From: Mobula hypostoma
Taxonomy: Eukaryota
Length of the DNA stretch: 64,000 bases
Reading direction: 5' to 3'
Assembly: GCF_963921235.1 (NCBI RefSeq)
Contig: NC_086097.1
Span: 152,584,001-152,648,000 of the forward strand
This document shows positions 10,127 through 64,000 of this stretch, piece by piece. How positions within the stretch are numbered: the stretch's first letter is position 1; each line of letters starts with the position of its first letter. The notes under the pieces were generated by a model. That model was not told the origin of the DNA, did not search any database, and saw only the letters and a program-made list of their open reading frames with translations. The position numbers were made by a program, and so were the translations under genes.

Positions 10127-10831
10127 TTACCGGAATTTGGAGAATTCTATGTTCATACCAAGGGGCTGGAGACTACCTAGATGGTATATGAGGTGTTGCT
10201 CCTCCAACCTGAGTTTAGCCTCATCATGGCAGTAGAGGAGGCCATGTATGGACATATCTGAATGGGAGTGGGAAGCAGAGTTGAAGTGGGTGGCTACTGG
10301 GAGATCCTGTCTGTTTTGGCGGATGGAGTGGAGGTGCTCGACAAAGCGGTCCCCCAATCTGCGTCGGGTTTCACCGATGTAGAGGAGGCCACACCGGGAA
10401 CACCGGATGCAATAGATGACCCCAACAGACTCACAAGTGAGGTGTTGCCTCATCTGGAAGGACTGTTTGGGGCCCTGAATGGTGGCAAGAGAGGAGGTGT
10501 AGGGACGGGTGTAGCACTTGCGCTTACAAGGATAAGTGCCGGGTGGGAGATCAGTGGGGAGGGACGTGTGGACCAGGGAGTCGCGGAGGGACTGATCCCT
10601 GCGGAAAGTGGAGAGGTATGGAGAGGGAAAGATGTACTTAGTGGTGGGGTCCTGTTGAAGGTGGCGGAAGTTGCGGAGGATAACGTGCTGGATCCGGAGG
10701 CTGGTGGGGTGGTAGGTGAGGACAAGGGGAACTCTGTCCCTGTTGCAGTGGCGGGAGGATGGGGTGAGGGCTGAAGTGCGGGAAATGGAGGAGGTGCAGG
10801 TGAGGGCATCATTGATGGGAAGGGAAACCAT
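10127..10831 (-). CDS. Penelope ORF C-terminal fragment: linker plus GIY-YIG endonuclease
   Basis: RVPLVLTYHP...PGTYPCKRKCYT...GVIYCIRCSRCGLLYIGETRRRLGDRFVEH...VATHFN...RLEEQHLIY.LGSLQPLGMN. Open but 5'-truncated. Confidence 0.85.
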   Translation of the reverse strand: MVSLPINDALTCTSSISRTSALTPSSRHCNRDRVPLVLTYHPTSLRIQHVILRNFRHLQQDPTTKYIFPSPYLSTFRRDQSLRDSLVHTSLPTDLPPGTYPCKRKCYTRPYTSSLATIQGPKQSFQMRQHLTCESVGVIYCIRCSRCGLLYIGETRRRLGDRFVEHLHSIRQNRQDLPVATHFNSASHSHSDMSIHGLLYCHDEAKLRLEEQHLIYHLGSLQPLGMNIEFSKFR

Positions 10832-10928
10832 GATCCTTAAAGAAAGAGGACACTTGAGATGTCCTGGAACAGAAAAACCTCATCCTCGGAGCAGATGCGG
10901 CAGAGACGGAGGAACTGGGAATAGGGAA

Positions 10929-11336
10929 TGTCCCTGTAAGCGCAAGTGCTACACCTGTCCCTACACCTCCTCTCTTGCCACCATTCAGGGCCCCAAGCAG
11001 TCCTTCCAAGTGAGGCAACACCTCACTTGTGAGTCTGTTGGGGTCATCTATTGCATCCGGTGCTCCCAGTGTGGCCTCCTCTACATCGGTGAAACCCGAC
11101 GCAGATTGGGGGACCGCTTCGTCGAGCACCTCTGCTCCATCCGCCACAGCAGACAGGATCTCCCAGTAGCCACCCACTTCAACTCTGCTTCCCACTCCCA
11201 TTCAGATATGTCCATACATGCCCTCCTCTACTGTCATTATGAGGCTAAACTCAGGCTGGAGGAGCAACACCTCATATACCGTCTAGGTAGTCTCCAGCCC
11301 CTTGGTATGAACATAGAATTCTCCAGATTCCGGTAA
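10929..11336 (+). CDS. Penelope GIY-YIG endonuclease fragment (second, inverted arm)
   Basis: CPCKRKCYTC...VIYCIRCSQCGLLYIGET...HF. The N-terminal part of listed ORF 10716-11336 is only antisense read-through of the other arm. Confidence 0.85.
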   Translation, partial: CPCKRKCYTCPYTSSLATIQGPKQSFQVRQHLTCESVGVIYCIRCSQCGLLYIGETRRRLGDRFVEHLCSIRHSRQDLPVATHFNSASHSHSDMSIHALLYCHYEAKLRLEEQHLIYRLGSLQPLGMNIEFSRFR

Positions 11337-12338: not shown

Positions 12339-14092
12339 TAGTTGTGCTAGAAAGTTTGTAAACACTCTAATTTTCTCTACTTCTACGTAAATATGATGTA
12401 AAATGTAATCAGATCTTCACAGAAGTTCTAAAACTAGATAAGGAGCACCCAATTAAATAAACAACATAAAAATATTATACTTGTTCAGTTATTTATTGAG
12501 AAAAATAATCCAGTATTACATGTATTTGTTGGAAAAAGTATGCGAACCTTTGCTTTCAGTAACTGGTGTGACTCCCTTATAAAATAATAACTTCAATCAA
12601 ACGTTTCCAGCAGCTGTTGATCAGTCCTGCACATCGGCTTGAAGGGATTTTAGACCATTCCTCCTTACAAAACTGCTTCAATTCTAGGATGTTGGTGGAC
12701 TTCCTTGCATGAACTGCGTGCTTCAGGTCCTTCCACAACATTTCTATAGGCATTCCAAAACATGAATTTTCTTCTTTTTAAACCATTCTTGTTTTTTGGA
12801 TCATTGTTCTGTTGCATTATCCAACTCTACTAAATTTCAGGTGATGGACTGCTTCCTTGAAAATCTCCTGTAAAATATATTGATGCAATTTTAAATTAAT
12901 TGTTCCCTCAATTACTGCAGGCTGTCCAGACACTGAGGAAGCAAAGCAGCCCCAAACCATGATGCTTCTTCCACCATGCTTCACAGTTAGATTGAGGTTT
13001 TGGTGTTGGTGTGCAGTGCACTTTTTCCTCCATACATAGCAATATACACTTTTGCCAAACAAGTTCAATTTTTGCCACAGAACATTGTCCCAGAAGTATT
13101 GTAGAACATCCAGGTGGTCTTTTGCAAACTTGAGATGTGCAGAATTTTTTTTTGGAGAACAGTGGTTTCTCCATGGTGTCCTTTCATGAACACTATTCTG
13201 GTTCAGTGTTTTTCTTATAATGGACACATGAACAGAGACTTCAGCAAGCTCTAGAGATTTCTGTAGGTCTCCTGTTGATACCATTGTGTTCTTTTTCACC
13301 TCCCTCAGCATTGCACATTGTGCTCCTGGTGTGATCTTTGCCGGATGCCCACTCCTAGGAAGAGTAGCAACAGTACTGGATTTCCTCCATTTGCAGACAA
13401 TTTCTCTTACTGTGGAGTGATGAACACTCAGGTCTTAGAAATGATTTTGTAGACTTTTGCAGCTTCGTGCATCTCTGTATTTCTTCTTCTAAGGTCCTCT
13501 GAAAGTTGTTTTGATCAAGGCATGGTGCACATAAACAAATCTTTCTTGAGAAGAGCAGGCTCTGTCAGTAACCTGACTTTATGTGTGTTTTCTTTATAGA
13601 CCAGGGCAACTCTATGACCCACACCTCCAATCTCATCTCATTGATTGGAACACCTAACTCCAAATAGCTTTTGAAAAAGGCATTACCCGGGAAATTCACA
13701 TTCTTTTTCTAAAAGATACATATAACATTGAACCTTTTTTTCTCAATAAATAAGTGAACAAGTTTAATGTTCTTGTGTTATTTATTTAATTGGCTGCCAT
13801 CCTGACTTCACTAAGTGGGTAATAAAATTAAATGTCCTTCCCTGTTCTTACCTTTATCTCAGCTCAGACTCTCACTGAAGCCTCATGAGCCAAAGTTCCA
13901 GCAATTATTCCTGAAACACAGCTGCTCCTAAATGGTTGTTCCTCGAGAATCTGGCTTCCTTTTATTCACTGCCAGAGACTTTTCTTTATCTAGTTTTCTT
14001 GGACTTATGTGAAGATATGATCACATTTTAGGTCATATTTATGCGGGAAAAGAGAAAATTCTACAGGGTTCGTGAACTTTCAGTCACCACTA
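12339..14092 (-). mobile_element. Tc1-family DNA transposon (long TIRs), degenerate transposase
   Basis: TA-flanked ends TAGTTGTGCTAGAAAGTTTG / GAACTTTCAGTCACCACTA. ORF 12817-13311 has HLKFAKDHL..., TVKHGGRSIMVWGCF. The right TIR is interrupted by a ~13795-13975 insert. Confidence 0.9.
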
Positions 14093-20655: not shown

Positions 20656-23600
20656 TGAATTGAATTGATTTTATTTCTTATATCCTTCATATACATGAGG
20701 AGTAAAAATCTTTATGATACATCTCCATCTAAATGTGCAATGTGCAATCATAGTAATTTAAAGTAATTTATAATAAATAGAACAATCAATGTAATATAGA
20801 GTACACTTAATTCAGTTGTGAGTTCATCAGCCTGATGGCCTGGTGGAAGAAGCAGTCCCGGAGCCTGTTGGTCCTGGCTTTTGTTCTGCGGTACCACTTC
20901 CTGGATGGTAACAGCTGGAGTAGATTGTGGTTGGGATGACTTGGGTCCCCAATGATTCTACGGGCCCTGTTTACACACCTGTCCTTGTAAATGTCCTGAA
21001 TCATGGGAAGTTCACAAGTATAGATGTGCTCGGCTGTCTGTACCACTCTCTACAGAGTCCTGCGATTAAGGAAGGTACAGTTCCAATACCAGGCAGTGAT
21101 GCAGCCAGTCAGGATACTCTCAATTGTGCCCCTGTAGAAAGTACTAAGGATCTGGGAACCCATACCAAACCTCCTCAACCGTCTGAGGTGCTGTTGAGCC
21201 TTTATCACCACACAGCTAGTGTGCACAGACCACGTGAGGTCCTCGATGATGTGGATGCTGAGCAACTTGAAGCTGTTTACCCTCTCAACCCCAGATCCAT
21301 TGATGTTAATAGGGGTTAGCCTGTCTCCATCCCTCCTGTAATCCACAACCAGCTCCTTTGTTTTTGCGACACTGAAGGAGAAGTTATTTTCTTGACACCA
21401 CTGTGTCAGAGAGATGACTTCTTCCCTGTATGCCACCTCGTTATTGTTTGAAATAAGGCCAAACGATGTGGTGTCAACGGCAAATTTAATTAGCAGATTG
21501 GAGCTGTGGGTGGTGATACAGTCATGGGTATACAGGGAGTAAAGGAGGGGACTCAGTACGCAGCTCCGAGGGGCTCCTGTATTGAGAGTCAAAGTGTTGG
21601 AGGTGAGGGAGCCCACTCTTATAACGTGGTGGCGATCTGACAGGAAGTCCAGTATCCATCTGCACAAGGTAAGGTCAAGGACGAGGTCTCTGAGCTTCTT
21701 GTCGAGCCTGGATGGAACTATAATAGAACATAGAACATAGAATAGTACAGCACAGTATAGGCCCTTCAGCCCACATTGTTGTGCCGACCCTCAAACCCTG
21801 CCTCCCATATAACCCCCCCATCTTAAATTCCTCCATATACCTGTCTAGTAGTCTCTCAAATTTCACTAGTGTATCTGCCTCCACCACTGACTCAGGCAGG
21901 GTATTCTATGCACCAATCACGCTCTGAGTAAAAAACCTTCATTTAATTTCCCCCTTGAACTTCCCACCCCTTACCTTAAAGCCATGTCCCCTTGTATTGA
22001 GCAGTGGTGCCCTGGTGAAGAGGCACTGGCTATCCACTCTATCTATTCCTCTTAATATCTTGTATACCTCTATCATGTCTCCTCTCATCTTCCTTCCCTC
22101 CAAAGAGTAAAGCCCTAGCTCCCTTAATCTCTGATCATAATCCATACTCTCTAAACCAGGCAGCATCCTGGTAGATTTCCTCTGTACCCTTTCCAATGTT
22201 TCCACATCCTTCCTATAGTGAGACGACCAGAACTGGACACAGTACTCCAAGTGTGGCCTAACCAGACTTTTATAGAGCTGCATCATTACCTCGCAACTTT
22301 TAAACTCTATCCCTCGACTTATGAAAGCTAACACCCCATAAGCTTTCTTAACTACCCTATCTACCTGTGAGGCAACTTTCAGGGATCTGTGGACATGTAC
22401 CCCCAGATCCCTCTGCTCCTCCACACTACCAAGTATCCTGCCATTTACTTTGTACTCTGCCTCGGAGTTTGTCCTTCCAAAGTGTACCACCTCACATTTC
22501 TCCAGGTTGAATTCCATCTGCCACTTTTCAGTCCACTTCTGCAACCTATCAATGTCTCTCTGCAATCTTCAACAATCCTCTACACTATCTACAACACCAC
22601 CAACGTTTGTGTCATCTGCAAACTTGCCTACCCACCCTTCTACCCCCACATCCAGGTCGTTAATAAAAATCACGAAAAGTAGAGGTCCCAGAACAGATCC
22701 TTGTGGGACACCACTAGTCACAATCCTCCAATCTGAATGTATTCCATCCACCACCACCCTCTGCCTTCTGCAGGCAAGCCAATTCTGAATCCACCTGGAA
22801 AAACTTCCCTGGATCCCATGCCTTCTGACTTTCTGAATAAGCCTACCATGTGGAACCTTGTCAGATGGAATGCTGAACTGTAGTCCAGGAACAGCATTCT
22901 CACATAAGTATCCTTCTTCTCCAGACGTGTAAGGACGGTATGTAGAGCAGTGGCTATTGCGTCATCTGTCGATCAGTTGTGTCAGTAGGTGAATTGTAGG
23001 GGGTCCAGTGTGGGTGGTAACAAGCTGCAGATGTAGTCCTTGACCAGCCTCTCAAAGCATTTGCTTATTATTGAGGTGAGTGCGATAGGAAGCCAGTCGT
23101 TCAGGCATGTTACCTTGGTTTTTGTTGGTACAGGGACAATGGTGGATAATTTGACGCAAGAGGACACTCTACACTGGGAGAGGGAGAGATTAAAAATGTC
23201 AGTAAACACACCTGCCAGTTGTGCTGCGCACATCCTGAATAGTTGCCCTGGGATGCCGTCCAGCCCAGCAGCCTTGTGACTGTCCACTTGTTGGAAACAT
23301 CTGTGTACCTCAGCCTCAGAGACGACCAGGTTGCAGGGTGTAGCGGTGGCTTTCCTCAGAGGGTCAGAGTTAGTGACATCGAACCGCGCGTAAAAGTGAT
23401 TGAGCTCATCTGGGAGAGAGGCCGCGATGTTGGCAGCACCACAACGTTTAACTTTGAAGTCTACGATGGTATGCAGCCCTCGCCACAAGTCACACATGCT
23501 AGTTGTTGTGAATCTTGACTCAATCTACTCTCTATATTGTTGTTCCACAGCCTTGATAGCTTTGCACAGATCATAGCTGCTTTTCTTCAGCTCTAGTTAA

Positions 23601-29027: not shown

Positions 29028-31886
29028 GGATATAGCGGAGTGCTAGCTTCTGATACTTAACCTGATGAGGAAAGTCTTCATGGAGACCAAGACAGAATGA
29101 AGACCCTAGCTGCCTTCAATGGTTGGCACACCATTGTTGCTGCAGAGCAGCCTTCAATGGGGCTGCCTGAGTTTTCTTCCAATTTTGTTGGCAATATCAG
29201 ATTAGCTACTTAGCCTCTCACCTCTGATTCCTGCTCAGGAAACTGAGGCCATGGATAACCAAACTGACATTCAAAGGGAGACATACCCATAGAAAAATGG
29301 TGCAGAATGTTATGTGTAATCTCTGTCCAGAGCAGATGATCATTTCAAGTGGGTGGGTTATCCAAAACAAGGCTCCTCAACATCTTCTCCAGGTGCTGTT
29401 TAGTACCCTCCATCTGCCCATTGGACCTGCAGTGAAATCCTAATGAGAAGCTGGCTGTAGCTCTGATGAGCTGACAGAAGGCTTTACAGAACCAGGAAGT
29501 AGGCTGGGGGCCCTTGGTCAGAAACAACGTCCCAGAGAAAGCCTTGCACTCTAAACACATGCTGTAGGATAAGGTTAGCCATCTCCCAAGCTGAGGGAAT
29601 CTAGAGTAGGACACATAGTGGCAGGCCTTGGAGAACCCGTCTACCACCACCATAATCACGATGTTACCTTGTGATAGTGGCAGACTGGTAATAAAGTCCA
29701 TGGAGATCTGGCACCAGGGATAGGAATGAATGTGCAGTGGGTGTAGCAGCTCTTGTGGTCATGATCTGGGTTTCTTGTTCTTGGCACAGGTGTAACAGGC
29801 TGCCATGTGTGATTTAGCATCCCTATCCATGCACACCCACGAGAACCACCTCTTCATGAACTCCACCATTTGATCAGTCCCTGGATGTTCTATGATGTGA
29901 AGTGTGCCTTCACTGTAACACAATTGAATAGACAGAGTTAGGACAAAAAGGTGACCCACTGGGCCCTTCCCCGGGTCTGCCTCCTGCTGTTGCGCTCTCC
30001 CAGTGATGGTCTTAACCTCTTCTTGGACCGATACCGCCAGCTTGGACCTCAACAGGATACGTTCTGGGCCAGCTTCTGGGTCTTGTTGTTCAATCTGCCT
30101 GGAGATGGCATCTGGCTTCCGATTCTTCAAATCTGTATGGTAGGTGATGATAAAGTTAAAATGGTTTAACAAGATAGATCACTGAGACTGGCACAAATTT
30201 AACTGCTCCGCCTCTTGAATATAGGTCAAGCTCTTGTGGTCAGTCCAGACTACAAATGGATGTTTGGCTCCCGCCAGCCAATGTCTCCAATCCTCCAGGG
30301 CCATTTTGACTGCCAACAGCTCTCTATTCCCTATGTCACAATTCCTCTCTGTGCGAGAGAACTACCAGGTGAAGAAAGCACAGGGATGGTCAGGTGCAGG
30401 GTCTTATCAAAGAACAGCTCCAACCTCAATGTCTGAGGCATCTTCTGCAATGAGGAATGGCAGCTCTTGGTCAGGGACAACAAAGACAGGAACCATTGTG
30501 AACCAACACTTCGATGCTAGAAAAGCTAGCTTGACTTCTACTGTCCAGTGAAATAGACCGAATGTTGCCTTAGTCAGGAGCAGTAACCGGTGCTGTGATG
30601 GAACTGAAGTCATGGAGGAAATTCCAGTAAAAATCAGTGAATCCCAGAAAATGCTGAAACTACTTGTTCATGGTGGGTTACGGCCAATCCTTAATGGCTT
30701 GAGTCTTGCTAAGATCTATCTGAAGATTCCCTTTAGAAGCAGCAAACCCAAGAAAGGAGATTGTGGAAATGTGGGACACACTCTCCTCCAGTTTAATGAA
30801 GGGTTGTTTCCGGAGTAAATATTGAAGGATCTGTTGAACATGTTGGATAAATTTGTGGCAGGTGTTTGAGAAAATGAATATATCATCCAGAGCGCTTTAG
30901 CATATCTATGAGCACTTCATTAATAAGGGCTAGGAAGACTGACGGGGTGTAGAGTAAACTGAACGGCATCATAAGCTACTTCTATTGGACACTGAGGGTT
31001 TTAAAAGTAGTTTTCCAATCACCCCCTCCCAAATGTGGACCAAGTTCTATGTTCTTCAGAGGTCAAGTTTAGTAAAAATGATTACCCCTTGCAGCAACTC
31101 GAAAGCTATGGTCATCAGTGACAAAGGGCACCAATTCTTCACGGTGATCTCGAGGCCTCAAGAAGCTATACCCGTTTGAAGCCAACCATTCTTTTTTGTC
31201 ACGAAGAAGAAGCCTGCACCAGCAAGGGATGTGGAAGGGCAGATGGATGGAAGTGCATGAGAGCTGTGAGATGGCAGACCCTTCCAGGGCCTAGAGGTCT
31301 TCCATCCAGAGCTGTGACTGTGACCGGTTGGTTAAGATGGGCAGGGGAACTCAAAGTTGTCTTGCTAACCAGAGGTCCATGAAATTGCATGCTGCACCAA
31401 AATCCGCAAAGACTCCGGGAGATGTAGTAGAGGGCATGACTCCGACATAGCAGACCTGGGAGGAACAGTGGAGCTTGTCATGACCTCCCTTCTTGGACTG
31501 GTCTGGATGTTTTCCCGACAACTCCGGACAGGCGGAACAAAAATGCCCCAGCTCACCACAGTTGAGGCAGTAATTTCTATTCATTCTCTGGTCCTGCTCA
31601 GCTGGAGAAAGTCCGATTCTGGCCCGTCACATCGACTCCTTTGGAGGAAGTTGAGGAGTGTGAACCTCCATGGGTGATGAGGCTGGAGTGGCTCGGAGGC
31701 TGGCACCTCTCGAGGACATACTGCGGCACTCTCTTTTTCCTTCCAGCAGATGATTGTCGACAGTTATGGAGGTATCAATGAGAGTCTCTAGATTTTCCAC
31801 TGGGTCTCAACTTTAATTTCACCCCAAAGTCTATGATGGAACATGGCTCTAATCAAAATCAATATGAAGTTCAATATCACCAGCAT

Positions 31887-45651: not shown

Positions 45652-47103
45652 GTCTCAAAAAATTTAACCTTCTTAGTTTAATTTATCAAAATTATTTATT
45701 TATACCTTCACTAAGTGATCCTACCTTTTTTCTTTGGAGGAATAAAGGAGTCTATTCCTTCATGGATCTGTTCCAAGAAGGCCAATTGATGTCTTTTGAG
45801 AAATTAGTAACTAAATACTCTCTCTCGTACTCACATTTCTTGCAATATCTTCAGGTCAGACATTTCTTACAAGAATATTTAAGTAATTTTCCATATATGC
45901 AGGATTCTGACCAGTATTTTAAAAACGGGTCCTTTAGTGAAAGGTTTAATTATGAAAATTTATAATTTACGATTACAACAGTACAATTATCCTTCACTTA
46001 AGCAAGATTGGGAAAGAGAGCTTAACATGAGCTTGATAACAGAGTAAACACAAGGAATACTGCAGATGCTGGAAATTCAAGCAACACACATCAAAGTTGC
46101 TGGTAAACGCAACAGGCCACCAGCAGAACGATGCTGCCTGGCCTGCTGTGTTCACCAGCAACTTTGATGTGTGTTGCTTGATAACAGAGGATTGGTTGCG
46201 GATTTTGAAGTTGGTTAAGTCTTCTTCGATTTGTGCCAGTCACTCTTTAATTCAATTTAAAATTGTACATCGTTACTATTTGACAAAGGAGAGACTGTCT
46301 AAAATATTTCCTAATGTTGATAGTCAGTGTGGTAGATGTAAAACCAAGATAGGTACACTGACACATATGTTTTGGTCGTGTTCTGTATTGAAACAGTTTT
46401 GGAAATCTATTTTCTCTACAATTTCTAAAGCTTTAAAAATTAATTTACAACCTAATAAATTGACAGTTTTGTTCGGTATAATCCCTCAATATATTCATTG
46501 TATTTCTATATCAGATCAACATGTAATTGCATTTGTTACATTATTGGCCAGAAGGGCTATTTTATGAAAATGGAAAGATGCCTCTGCTCCCACTTTGATA
46601 GGATGGTTCTCTCAGGTGATGTTATGTCTTAGTTTGGAGAAAATCAGAAGTCGAACTTTTGATCCTTGATTTGACTTTGAGAAAAGGTGGGGTTCTTTTG
46701 CCTGCTGCTATCATCTGATTTGAGTTAATTAAGATGATTTCCTTCTGATTCTTGTTTAAATGGATTTGAGTTGGCGGATTGATGTTTTCTTTTATGGAAG
46801 CTTGTATGGCGTATAGCTCCGGGGTTGTGCTCCCAATGGTTTTTTCCTTTTTTTTGTTAGCAGGGTTTTTTTTTGTTTTAGTTAGTAGAGGTTCTTTTTT
46901 CCTTCTTTCTTTTTTCCAAAAGAATAGTTTTAACACTTTATTTTTTCTTATTATTATTGATATATTGTACAGCTTTGTTAATCAGTTATTTGGTAATTTA
47001 ATTTCTCATTGTACATATTGACATGTTGACTTGATTACTTTAGTGTATTTTTTGTTGATCTTCAATAATGATTAATAAAAAAGATTTTAAAATGAAAAAA
47101 AAT
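45652..47103 (+). mobile_element. L1/Tx1-clade LINE 3' portion
   Basis: HFLQYLQVRHF, LIQFKIVHRYYLT, CGRC....GTLTHMFWSC zinc motif, ARRAIL. AATAAA and A-rich tail at 47074-47103. Confidence 0.88.
46045..46175. mobile_element. 131-bp fold-back Penelope tail insert lacking the hammerhead; 14-bp TSD
   Basis: GCTTGATAACAGAG at 46031-46044 and 46176-46189. Inverted arms ~46078-46118 / 46139-46180. Confidence 0.88.
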
Positions 47104-58857: not shown

Positions 58858-61800
58858 ACTTCTTCTTCTTTGAGTTTTTACGGCAGTTGGTATCCACACT
58901 GTTGCATTACTGCCATCTTCAGGATTTATTGTCCTTCATTGTCCATTCACTTTAAAGCCGTCTTTCCAGTCCCGTCGCCCTTAAAAAACTAAACAACCGT
59001 TTCCTCCCCTGATCACTCTCCCCACATTCCAATAAACCTTTAACACTGTTCTCTACCAGTCCTATTTTGCATAATTGCTGTAACATTGTTGCCTTTCCTC
59101 AGCAAATTTCTGGCATGAAATAAGGATATGCTCTACTGTTTCAGTCTCCTGACATAGATCACAAAAACCTGTTGGATGCTTATTTATAATGGCCAGAGTG
59201 CCATTAAGGTTGCTGTGCCCAATTCCCAGTTTACTTATAATTACTTGCTCCTTCCGCTTTACTACCCTACTTCTTCCCATATCTACTCTGTTCTGAATTG
59301 AATGTAAATGTCTTCCTTTTATTGCTCTATCCCAATGCTGCTGCCACTGTTGATTTATTTTTCTCCACACTATGCTCTTCCCCTCTGATTTTGATAGTTT
59401 AATATTGACCTCTATAGATCCTTTTTTGACTGCTGCTTTTGCCAGCTTATCTGGTGTCTCATTTCCCATAATACCTGAATGTGCTGGAACCCACATGAAT
59501 GCGATAGTTTTGTCTTGTCTAGCCAGTCTTGAATTTGCAAACAGGATTTCATAAAGCAGATCCTGGTGACCTCTAGCTGTACCCGCCTTAATGCTTGCAA
59601 GGGCCGATACAGAATCGCTACATATCACAATATTATTACAATCAACCTGCTCACTCCATTCTAGTGCTAACAATATGGCAAACATTTCAACTGCATATAC
59701 ACTCAAGCAATCAGGTGTTCTCTTGCTAATTTCCACTCGATAACTTGGTACAACGATTGCAGACCCTGCTGCACCTGTGTCTGGACCCTTTGATCCATCC
59801 GTAAAAATCTGTATGCCTTTATATTTACATTCCCTATAACTATGATATTCACTGAGTGTATCAGCTATCTTATTACTGTGTTTAATCTTAAGCAATTCCA
59901 AACCTACAGAGGGATTTTCTAATACCCAGAAAGGTCTGACAGGCCACACCACATTTGGACAAAACTCTTTATACACCCGTATCTTTTGCTGTTTGCTCTC
60001 CTGTCCAGCCAAAACTTTCTTTTTGTGTCCTCTCCTTCTCCCAGCATGTCTGCAACACCATTTTTGTAGGATGGCTATCACCATGCCCCCTTAAATTAAT
60101 CCAGTAATTGGTCTCCAGCTGTTTACACAGCAGCCCCAATGGCATTTCATTTGCTTCAACTTGGAGTGCACACACTGGGGAAATTCTAACCTCTCCCAAG
60201 CACACCCTTAGAGCCCGAGCTTGTACGATACAGTATGCAGTTCTGCTAGCACAGATTTTGCTGCTGACCCGTGTACAGTACAACACTTCCATAGTCTAAT
60301 CTTGATCTTATTAATGCTACATAAATATACTTCTGTGATGCAAAATCAGCACCCCATTCTAATCCAGCAAGACACCTCATGATATTTATCACGTTTTTAC
60401 ATTTACTAACTACATATCAAACATGTTCTCTCCATGTTAATCTCAAGTCAAAGTGCACTCCCAAAAACCGAAAACTTTCAACTCTCTCCAGGTTACTTCC
60501 ATACAGATTCAAATTAAGTCCCCTGAACTTTTTCCTTGTAAAGAGCATGGCTTTTGTCTTCTCCACTGAAAATTTAACACCCCACTTTGTCCCCCACTCT
60601 TCAACTTGATTAATTCCATCTTGCATTTTTGTAACTATATGTTCAATATTTCTCCCCCTTTTCCACAAAGCCCCGTCATCTGCAAACAATGATCTCCCCA
60701 CTTCCATTGGAATATTTTCAAATATATCATTTATCAAAATGGAGAATAAAGTTGGACTCACTACACTCCCCTGAGGCATCCCGTTTTCTACAACATACTG
60801 GCTTGATAGCTCTGATCCTATCTTCACCTGAATAGTTCTCCTATTTAAAAAGTCCTTAACCCAATTGAACATCGCACCTCCTCCCCGATTCCCCTTAAAT
60901 GTAGCTTGATTAGGAGCCTCTCTTTCCATAACATATCATAAGTTTTCTCAACATCAAAAAAAAACTGCAACCACTGTCTCTTTATACTTGAGCTTTTCTT
61001 ATTTCATCCTCTAGACACAACACTGCATCCATAGTATTCCTTCCTTTCCTGAACCCGCACTAACCTCTCATTTATCATACGTTCCATAAGCTTACATACA
61101 TGTTACGTCAAGGCAATTGGCCTGTAGTTTTCTGGCCTGCTGGCATCTTTCCCAGGTTTCCTTATTGGAATAATTATTGCCTCTTTCCAGCTCCATGGTA
61201 TTCTCCCTTCATCCCAGACTTTGTTATACAGAAGCAGTAGTTTCTGCAAACTTCCTTCACTCAAGTGTTTTATCATATCATAACATATTTCATCTTTACC
61301 TGGCGTAGACTTTCCCGTTTTATCTAGTGCCTTTCTTAATTCTCCCGTGCTGAAAGGGACATCTTGCACACCGTCAAGGTTAGTTTTCCTACATAAAGTC
61401 TCCATACTTTCAGCTTTTGTTCTCTCTCTACCTCTTCTTCCCTTCTCAGACAAATTATCAGAACTATGTACCATAACAAAAGTGTTTGCCAACAACTCTG
61501 CCTTTTCCTTATTTGTTACTGCAGTCACATTTCCATCAACCAGAACTGGGTACCTCCACTCTCTCCTGTCCCCCCTATCCTTTTTATCATCCCCCGCACC
61601 TCTCCTACTTGAGTTGTGTTTCCGATTGAATCACAGTACTTTCTCCAGTGCGTCCTTTTAGCATGTCATATTGCCCTCCTTACTACTGCCTGAGCTTGTT
61701 TGTACTAAATCATGTGCTGGAAGTTATGAGTTCTTTTAACCAGTTTAAATGCCTTATTTCTATTTCTCACTGCTTCCTTACAATTATCATCCCACCATGG

Positions 61801-62110
61801 TATTATCCTCTTCTTTATTCTTCCTTTACTTTTAGGAATGGATTCTAATGCAGCTGATATTATACCTTGTTTTAATATGCTGTCAAGTGTTTCTATGTCC
61901 ATTCCATCACTGACCTGACTTAGATATCTATCATTTTTTTCCGGAAATTTCTCCCAATTGGCTTTCTCAAGGATCCATTTCCCACCTGTATTCTCTGTGA
62001 CCAACGAGGCAGAAATATTTATCTTGCACCAGATTGGGTAATGATCACTCCCTACAGTTGCTTCTTGGTACACTAACCAATCACACACTGATGTAATGGA
62101 ATTCGATACT

Positions 62111-62672
62111 GTTGTTCGTCCATCACTGGCGTCGATGAGGACCTCGACACCATAATGATGGTGTCGAGACTAGCGCGTGATTTGGATTTAAGTGAGGGAG
62201 AGTTGCTCAGCGTCAGCCTCACTCTCTCTTCCCAATTCCCATCTGGATCCAGTGGCAAGACAGAGTCTAGACAGCTGGAGATGGGACCTAGACGCAGTGG
62301 ATGACCAGGACGTCTTCTGTGTCTTGTCCTGCTCTATACGTTCCACGACGCTTGCAGAGACCGCCTTCTTGACCGTTGGACCTTCCATTGATCTCGTCCG
62401 CTCAATCCGCCGGAGTCTGTCTTCACATGCTGGGATAGACAACTCGCTATCTCACTGAGGGTTTGAGACCCATCGGCTACCCTCACCTGGTTTAGTCGGC
62501 TTGTCGAAGCCGTTGCCCGGGTGGCTGCTGTCGCATGCAAACAGCTACGGGGAGCCACAGGTGAGAGCTGAGTGCCAGTTGGGGACCAAAGGTGGACTAA
62601 CCACCCTGAAAAGATTGCGACGTGTTCCCCCACCAGAGGTGCTACCCCTCCCTGACACCCCATACACCCCAC
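62111..62672 (-). mobile_element. ~560-bp non-coding RTE-like retroelement inserted in the Nimb APE domain
   Basis: Host frame DLTLV|SNSITSVCDW rejoins across it. (CAA)n tail GAACAAC, GC/CpG-rich body, structured 5' end. Confidence 0.8.
62482..62670 (-). ncRNA. HDV-like ribozyme fold (putative, mutated copy)
   Basis: P2 CTCACCTG/CAGGTGAG, P3 GGC/GCC, L3 TCC, P1.1 GG, GGGCAAC junction, P4 CGGCTT/AAGCCG, J4/2 ACTAA. P1 is only GGGT/ACCC. Confidence 0.7.
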
Positions 62673-64000
62673 ACACTAATGTAAGATCAAGCACAGATTC
62701 TTTACCTGTATTAACGTCAATTCTAGTACTACTGCCATCATTTAGGCACACTAAATGCTCCTCATCTAGCAACTCCTCTATTACCTGACCATTGATGTCT
62801 GTTCTGTCACTCCCCCATGATACATTATGTCCATTAAAATCACCACACCAAACAACGTTACTACTATTCTGCCCTTCTATCTCCTCAAGCTTGTTTAACT
62901 CTAGTCTTTTGCATGGATTATAATAATTCACAATCACCAACGCTTTCCTTTCAGCCCATAGTTTTACTACCACATACTCTTGTTCACTTCCTACACCTAG
63001 TATTCTATAAGGAGTACCTTGCTTTACAGAAGTTGCACATCCTCCTCCTCCACCCTCTCTCCTGTCTCGCCTTACTGCCTCATAACCATATAAAACAAAA
63101 TCTAAATTAGGTTTTAACCAGGTCTCCTGGATACACACAACATCTGGCTTTTCTCTCCTACTAGCTATAAACTGCTTGAAATCTTGTCCATTAACAATCA
63201 GGTTTCTTGCATTCCATTGAAGAAGTAGCATTATTAGTAATATCAGCCCACACATACTGTCTCTTGACTTGACTGTACCCTGAGTTCATCGTTTACTTCT
63301 TCCCATTTTAATCCTATCATATCCAAATGGTGCTCTGCAGCTTTCACAATAATCTGAATCCTTTCAGTTTTAGATTTGATTTCGTAAGTTGTATTTACCA
63401 CTCCTGCTATAAAGGTCACCAATTTCTTCTTCTCTATCCATGCATTCTTCTTATCTTGCCTTTCTTTAGCTGCCGCTTGCTCTTTGCTACATCCTCCCTC
63501 ATTCATTTTCTTCTGTCCTGCCAACTTGACTGCCTCAGCATGAGACTTTTTCCTTCACCGTTATCTGCTGCACCTCCACCTCTTTTTTCAACACTTCACA
63601 TCCCCAGTACACTACACTATGGTTACCTCCACAATTACAGCACTTTGGTCTCACTCCCTCTCCACATTTTCCGTATTCATGTTCCCCACCACACCTTGCA
63701 CATCTTCTCTTTCCTTTGCACACTTTGGCCACATGCCCAAACTCCTGGCAATTGAAACACCTCATAGGTTTTGGTATATATTCTCTTACATTGTATCTTA
63801 GAAATCCAAAATATAACTCCGTTGGAGGCACCTTATCCTCAAATTCTACCAGAACTGTTTCAGTCTCCCTTTTCTCTGCTCCCCTTGTCATTCTTTTCAC
63901 ACTCTTCACTGAACTACTCCTCACCCTCAAGTTCTCCAATAGCTCCTTCATATTAACACTGAGGGGAACCCCGGATATCACCCCCTTGCAACCATTGACC

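Follow-up and report, generated by a model that had tools for sequence, protein, structure and literature searches.

HDV-like ribozymes tolerate additions in J1/2 and P4, and their L3 is short and forms part of the active site. According to passages of PMC5786205, PMC6765202 and PMC3774820, they head the non-LTR retrotransposons RTE, R2, R4, baggins and L1Tc, and passages of the first two of these sources describe bipartite RTE elements alongside the RTE 5' ribozymes. L3 has its usual size of 7-8 nt in HDV and CPEB3 (10.1101/2022.09.22.508989, in part), and the largest L3 departure found, within a portion of PMC3774820, is an altered spacing, in the R2 ribozyme of Nasonia vitripennis; the same portion reports that cleavage of the silkmoth R2 ribozyme needed downstream sequence. 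A structured J1/2 speeds cleavage, and a peripheral tertiary contact had not been proposed for the class, as far as passages of PMC4908430 go.

Here we analyse an element on the minus strand of a 64,000-nt stretch of the Mobula hypostoma genome (RefSeq assembly GCF_963921235.1, contig NC_086097.1, positions 152,584,001 to 152,648,000; hereafter the window), for which an earlier note, made from the letters alone, had proposed an HDV-like ribozyme with a hairpin in L3 at the 5' end of a small non-coding retroelement. With a probability of roughly 0.7, we read the locus as a damaged copy of an HDV-like ribozyme, likely self-cleaving when intact, that heads both an RTE LINE and its short derivative, with an extra helix, between the loop of the L3 hairpin and a hexamer downstream of P2', that likely locks the fold. 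Delta ribozymes at the head of RTEs, large J1/2 domains and bipartite derivatives of RTE elements are already known. The L3 hairpin with its covarying long-range partner is a new part, provisionally so because earlier figures and supplements, including those of the RTE-ribozyme surveys, may already show the hairpin; a literature search returned neither an L3 hairpin nor a loop-to-3' helix in this class.

Origin and surroundings of the element

The element (62111..62670, minus strand; ~560 bp, with a majority length of 564 bp among copies of the same genome) ends in a (CAA)n-type tail and joins bases 1-~520 of the 5'UTR of a 4.1-kb RTE LINE of the same genome to the last ~42 bases of that LINE, in its 3'UTR. 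A core 20-mer has 1,939 exact matches in the genome (0 for a reversed control), and the partner LINE was found where one core match ran on into it. A LINE-internal probe, independent of the element's 5' end, led to 30 loci, 29 of which carry element bases 1-521, whole or in part, directly upstream at 87-98% identity, and the element's final ~42 nt also end 16 of the 21 full-length LINE copies fetched. Because its 5'UTR and 3'UTR parts both match a LINE of the same genome, the element is identified, on these matches, as a two-ended derivative that arose from an RTE LINE by internal deletion, in agreement with the non-autonomous RTE-type element that the earlier note had described. The two parts meet in a junction hairpin (62143..62168, minus strand), whose mutually complementary arms are separated by ~3.5 kb in the full LINE. 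The sole open reading frame in the element is one of ~92 codons, and no enzyme is encoded; the ~92-codon frame was rejected as a protein, as it has no match among longer proteins and no stop inside the element. A tRNA-, 5S- or 7SL-headed SINE was also rejected, the head being the LINE's own 5'UTR without an Rfam small-RNA match.

The partner LINE has a 1,109-aa majority frame with a reverse transcriptase (RT) domain (Pfam E 1e-30). The endonuclease pieces of a frameshifted copy gave no Pfam match, and in close full-length relatives endonuclease and RT are both present; the LINE is a probable member of the RTE clade. Relatives of the RT number 2,069 at E <= 1e-50, with named ones from a ray (89%), turtles (77-81%), frog, fish, lancelets, a snail and tapeworms. 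The supplement of PMC5786205 (consulted in part) prints fragments of three Repbase elements, RTE-11_PSi, RTE-2_CPB and RTE-3_AMi, and the 3' half of the element's UTR aligns closely with them at similar coordinates; three core motifs gave 0 matches in that supplement, whose Repbase fragments exclude the ribozyme regions. As a side observation (window 62320-62175 and L329:2457-3521), the UTR shows by eye ~9 differences in ~137 nt from the printed fragment of turtle RTE-11_PSi, and RT relatives at 76-89% occur in ray, turtles, frog and fish, together a hint of possible horizontal transfer.

In the window, the element interrupts the endonuclease region of an older, decayed host LINE (59062..63285, minus strand), which lies in the same orientation and whose frame resumes past the element. 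This host retains endonuclease, reverse transcriptase and RNase H pieces (PF14529/PF03372, PF00078 and PF00075), and we take it to be I-clade-like. TSD-like flanking repeats of 9-12 nt were seen in 7 of the 13 copies assessed; around the window copy there is no clear long target-site duplication, the best candidate being AGTGT/AGTAT. Pfam also marks other mobile-element relics in the window, at 10127-11336, 12817-13434, 21050-21790, 29759-30178 and 46040-46567, the matches being to GIY-YIG (both strands), a transposase of the Tc3 type, a stretch of RT, an integrase zinc finger and a zf-RVT.

Seven lineages were compared, namely four families in the genome (F1-F4, or families 1-4) and three metagenome contigs (L157, L160 and L161), which are single-copy RTE 5' ends retained from eight metagenome pattern matches, the other five being unrelated and dropped. 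The seven are mutually related (61-86% identical). Copies were assigned to families on features outside the L3-hairpin loop and its downstream partner, with 12 unclassified copies left out, and the partner base and P4 of family 2 were restored from CpG-decay patterns.

Several of these families show further arrangements. A ~700-bp variant of family 1 (L122:2097-2771, L122:4977-5681 and L124:5928-6631) has ~120-190 extra nt between its 5'UTR and 3'UTR parts, which open with tRNA-like A-box text, in which ARAGORN reports no tRNA. Many short copies of family 3 (L195-L224, e.g. L198:1500-2050) combine the ribozyme head with a 3' half of another kind, which ends in (GAC)n and resembles the BovB-type UTR fragments in part of the supplement of PMC5786205, while other short family-3 copies have the tail of their own LINE; these combinations look like tail exchange, by analogy with R2/R1 hybrid SIDEs. 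Eight family-2 matches (L061, L070, L074-L076, L078, L079 and L087) break off at nearly one and the same point in J1/2. In at least seven of them a common, unrelated sequence lies upstream, which would fit the amplification of one truncated insertion inside another repeat. Sequencing runs of seven further organisms (B-H) also contain the element: the four runs examined, from organisms C-F, include forms of both family 1 and family 2, and depth climbs sharply at G1 in three of the four. The RNA data consisted of contigs, which cannot show RNA 5' ends, and a single raw-read run had no reads over the stretch.

The ribozyme fold and the 5' boundary

Every segment named in the earlier note was found at its place on the minus strand. 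The 5' strand of P1 (62670-62664) begins with the G at 62670, the element's first base and predicted cleavage site, and is followed by the J1/2 domain (62566..62663), a long rod with a predicted closing pairing of 62660-62651 with 62579-62570. Next come the 5' strands of P2 (62565-62558) and P3 (GGC, 62556-62554), and then the 8-nt L3 core (U20, C21, C22, N, N, G25, W, A; 62553-62546), with positions in what we take to be HDV numbering. After the hairpin inside L3, the strand continues through P3' (GCC, 62525-62523), P1' (62522-62519), the GG of P1.1 with J1.1/4 (GG-GCAA, 62518-62513), P4 (62512-62497), J4/2 (62496-62492, with the candidate catalytic C at 62495) and P2' (62489-62482). The extent given in the earlier note holds for these segments and stops short of the conserved unit, which continues to ~62421, through two small linker hairpins (62434..62476) and the partner hexamer. 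In the linker hairpins 92% and 80% of cells are paired across copies, with two double-change pairs each; their single-sequence folds are inconsistent.

All five helices (P1, P2, P3, P1.1 and P4) form in intact copies in the canonical nested order. Among 11 real copies, chosen for closeness to the family majority or for their loop type, paired cells amount to 97% in P2, 94% in P3, 96% in P1.1, 89% in P4 and 71% in P1, the last figure being low because several of the chosen copies are 5'-damaged. U20, C21, C22, G25 and the last A of L3 are invariant in all seven lineages, as are the G, C, A and A of J4/2, whereas L3 positions 23 and 24 vary. GGGCAAC is presumably identical to the P1.1/J1.1-4 segment of genomic HDV, and GCUAA to the antigenomic J4/2. 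The covariation proposed in the earlier note as a check was found in both P1, where L157 has a compensatory G-C to U-A change, and P4, where the outer 5 bp are paired in 7/7 lineages with three compensatory columns. A double-pseudoknot descriptor gave 69 matches (in partly redundant loci) in the 592 kb fetched, all with the L3 hairpin, and on two shuffles of the same DNA it gave 0 matches with the hairpin and 1 without. The invariant core, the covariation of P1 and P4 and the folding energy together support an HDV-like fold with an L3 hairpin, and we regard an HDV-like fold at the element's 5' end as very probable.

Rfam searches with the window copy, an intact copy and a natural hairpin-deleted copy gave no HDV match at threshold. 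The best match of the intact copy was RF02682, below threshold (13.2 bits vs 44, E 4.8), with an alignment covering P1.1-P4-J4/2; that the motif is missed by standard descriptors is plausible. The prokaryote and viral collections gave 0 matches and held no protein relatives of the LINE, and pattern searches there returned 2 and 89 hits, none of the 82 tested resembling the partner LINE. A second ribozyme or an internal duplication in the remainder of the LINE 5'UTR was rejected (local score 17.5 vs a shuffle mean of 22).

The element has a sharp 5' boundary at G1 at the DNA level: among 30 tail-anchored short copies, 14 start at base 1 and 17 at bases 1-4, with 2 at bases 9-14, and of the LINE copies anchored away from the 5' end, 15 out of 29 start within bases 1-4. 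Cleavage is predicted at G1 with good confidence. A closing rod of similar kind is predicted in J1/2 of the six lineages with a complete J1/2, and inside this rod the second GGGGUGU repeat (+10) would be hidden by pairing. Cleavage of family 1 at this second repeat was rejected, as it accounts for 2 of the 30 starts, falls in predicted pairing and finds no match in the P1' of L157. Family 4 has a P1 of just 6 bp, and several of its full-length copies have their first base in the second repeat (+10); L341, L342, L354 and L355 carry a 9-nt tandem repeat at the 5' end and start at its second unit, a pattern that suggests two usable P1 registers.

A fixed transcription start would also fit a sharp 5' end, and the two start positions of family 4 are compatible with a fold that no longer cleaves, in which the hairpin would block catalysis and an internal promoter would set the 5' end. 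Against this, the catalytic-core bases are invariant while their neighbours vary, and in L157 P1 covaries with the element's very first bases, as expected if the cut defines the element end. We consider loss of cleavage quite improbable for the families, and keep to the reading of a ribozyme that likely cuts before G1.

For the window copy itself, the earlier view of a damaged ribozyme holds. Over its first 262 nt it differs from the family majority by 11 substitutions and a 3-nt deletion, which takes half of P1' (ACCC, with ACACCCC in the family) and leaves a copy that can form 3-4 bp of P1; in addition, the G before the candidate catalytic C is changed to A. The window copy's ribozyme is probably dead, judging by these changes, and its MFE folding alone is uninformative (z -0.28). 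The family forms anticipated in the earlier note were recovered in other copies: P1' reads ACACCCC in 26/29 other top-scoring copies and in 50/61 non-redundant family-1 copies, and J4/2 reads GCTAA in 29/29 and 54/61, respectively. The L3 hairpin is intact in 51 of the same 61 copies.

As a separate observation, element bases 82-87 and 177-182 (window ~62589-62584 and ~62497-62492), in J1/2 and the catalytic strand, are complementary in every one of the seven lineages; two changes affect one side only, and double changes are absent. Their pairing could represent an inhibitory alternative fold.

The L3 hairpin and its downstream partner

In all families, L3 consists of the 8-nt core and ~18-20 extra nt, which in the window copy hold the hairpin (62545-62527, minus strand). 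The hairpin reported in the earlier note is present, with a conserved stem of 5 bp in place of the 6 bp drawn there and a loop of 7-9 nt. It is kept in 6 of the 7 lineages, with a loop length of 7 or 9 and with single-side changes only in the stem, while it cannot form in L160, which is represented by one 5'-truncated copy. Shortened copies number 108, and the 100 listed are scattered deletions; an amplified hairpin-less subfamily was sought and rejected, none being present among these 100 of the 108.

An alternative reading restores a canonical L3, with P3 closing on the GCU that directly follows L3 and with the additional bases placed between P3 and P1'. In family 1 the required GGC/GCU pairing is available and would leave a normal 8-nt loop, but this register costs 5 kcal/mol as drawn (-20.2 kcal/mol vs -25.3 kcal/mol for the fold with the hairpin in L3), or 2.5 kcal/mol after free refolding. 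In L161 and L160 it has decayed to GUU and GCA, respectively, whereas the GGC/GCC pairing is available in all seven lineages. A descriptor for the canonical short L3 had 0 matches in the fetched loci. A canonical L3 is thus very improbable for this family, and the hairpin very probably lies in L3.

The earlier account of the hairpin missed the downstream partner of its loop. In the window copy, the loop hexamer GCAUGC (62538-62533) forms the 5' strand of a predicted extra helix, the 3' strand of which is the hexamer GCAUGU (62430-62425), followed by an invariant GAAG. In 7/7 lineages the loop hexamer has its complement in a hexamer that lies 51 nt beyond P2', the loop/partner combinations being GCAUGC/GCAUGU in family 1 and L161, GCAUGC/GCAUGC in family 2 (partner inferred from CpG decay) and family 4, RCACGC/GCGUGU in family 3, ACAUGU/GCAUGU in L157 and ACAUGC/GCAUGU in L160. 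Pair 1 thus occurs across lineages as G-C, G-U and A-U. Pair 4 is U/A in 61/61 family-1 copies and C/G in 32 of 40 family-3 copies (the first 43 of 168 matches, minus three tandem duplicates), each of the other eight having lost one side by a CpG-type change.

An exhaustive scan of the alignment for 6-bp helices left two candidates that are paired throughout the seven lineages, and double changes (two) occur in the loop/partner helix only. In a 5-bp scan, double changes were confined to the loop/partner helix and P4, the latter serving as positive control. The loop/partner helix is also the only one that is 100% paired in the 11 copies described above. Under leave-one-out, both double changes are kept unless family 3 is removed, which leaves one (family 1 always being retained). 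A self-kissing dimer through the palindromic GCAUGC was rejected because the family-3 loop RCACGC (C at loop position 4 in 36/40 copies) is not self-complementary, with a self-duplex energy of -0.5 kcal/mol.

The complementarity might instead be a coincidence of related sequences under transition-biased change, the L3 hairpin itself being real. The strongest double change (U-A to C-G) is one event from one lineage, CpG sites touch both hexamers, and shuffles in 6-column blocks, which can leave both hexamers whole, reproduce such a helix in 13.6% of runs. Shuffling of single columns does so in only 0.15% of 2,000 runs, and of 3-column blocks in 0.4%; moreover, no lineage breaks the helix, and family 3 has altered both sides in register (the 32/40 copies above), so that its loop with the family-1 partner pairs poorly (-1.9 vs -7.7 kcal/mol). 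On this balance coincidence appears improbable, and the covariation argues that the extra helix is likely to form, giving a third pseudoknot.

Mechanism and comparison with known systems

In the scheme proposed here, transcription would come from upstream host promoters by read-through, the core would fold, and the J4/2 cytosine would cut before G1, freeing the element RNA from the read-through transcript; the LINE protein would then copy this RNA through the shared 3' tail. By analogy with known RTE and R2 biology, as set out in passages of PMC5786205, PMC6765202 and PMC3414825, this sequence of steps is likely. The loop of the L3 hairpin would in addition dock on the hexamer 51 nt beyond the core, completing the third pseudoknot, and the extra helix would favour the native core over misfolds, in which case cutting would wait until ~250 nt had been made. 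When folded without pseudoknots, families 1, 3 and 4 have a mispaired core, so a lock of this kind would be useful. That the helix promotes cleavage as a lock on the native fold falls a little short of even odds in our judgement. The most specific version, an RTE lineage with a triple-pseudoknot delta ribozyme whose L3 hairpin reaches downstream so that cleavage occurs only after ~250 nt of UTR, is put forward tentatively, as a model we would not yet bet on.

The main rival, with chance complementarity next, is a role after cleavage: the ribozyme would cut without the extra helix, and the pairing, though real, would serve a later step as a translation scaffold, in binding of the RTE protein or in RNA protection. 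HDV-like ribozymes have been proposed, in part of PMC6765202, to help translation to start and R2 protein to bind, and the partner lies inside a conserved GYRUGYGAAG block of a long structured UTR, which would suit such a function. Yet the hairpin sits between G25 and P3', adjoining the active site, so that docking would be expected to influence the core, and no hairpin-less subfamily has been amplified among the matches listed (100 of the 108 shortened copies). We hold a purely later role to be unlikely, and retain the lock on the native fold as the working reading.

If this reading is true, a conserved L3 hairpin with a covarying partner would extend the delta-ribozyme fold by a peripheral tertiary contact, and the peripheral tertiary lock would act as a built-in check that restricts cutting to true element transcripts; searches set to a short L3 would then miss a lineage with 2,069 RT relatives at E <= 1e-50. 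The natural U-A and C-G variants amount to a ready-made swap experiment. RTE-type elements matter for RNA-templated insertion of genes, an application in which control over the template 5' end counts.

Among described LINEs, AviRTE (PMC4844689, in part) is similar in having an ~800-bp 5'UTR, a ~3.2-kb ORF, a ~40-bp 3'UTR and bipartite derivatives. Unlike the window family, it lacks this ribozyme core at its 5' end (in the first 400 letters of each consensus available) and is therefore not of the same family as the window element. As an aside, the AviRTE consensus 5' ends (from part of supplement 5 of PMC4844689) show GGACAC/GTGTCC pairing by eye, which may mark another structured RNA.

The bipartite design itself recurs elsewhere. 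As in RTESINE2, WALLSI3 and MAR4_MD (passages of PMC5786205), a ribozyme-bearing 5' end is joined to a LINE 3' end with no ORF, and, as in the R2 SIDEs (passages of PMC3414825), the two ends are brought together by internal deletion. The SIDEs are described there as restricted to rDNA, whereas the window element is dispersed in thousands of copies, and, compared with the bipartite RTE elements and SIDEs in these passages, its junction takes the form of a hairpin with one arm from each UTR.

At the level of the RNA, the long base-paired J1/2 and the short linkers recall drz-Agam-2-1, a large ribozyme with a P1.2 domain (PMC4908430, in part). The window family shares with the HDV-like retrotransposon ribozymes the nested double pseudoknot, a predicted cut at the first base, the U-C-C..G of L3 and the C of J4/2, but differs from them in having a ~20-nt hairpin in L3 and a predicted 6-bp helix between the loop of this hairpin and sequence 3' of P2'.
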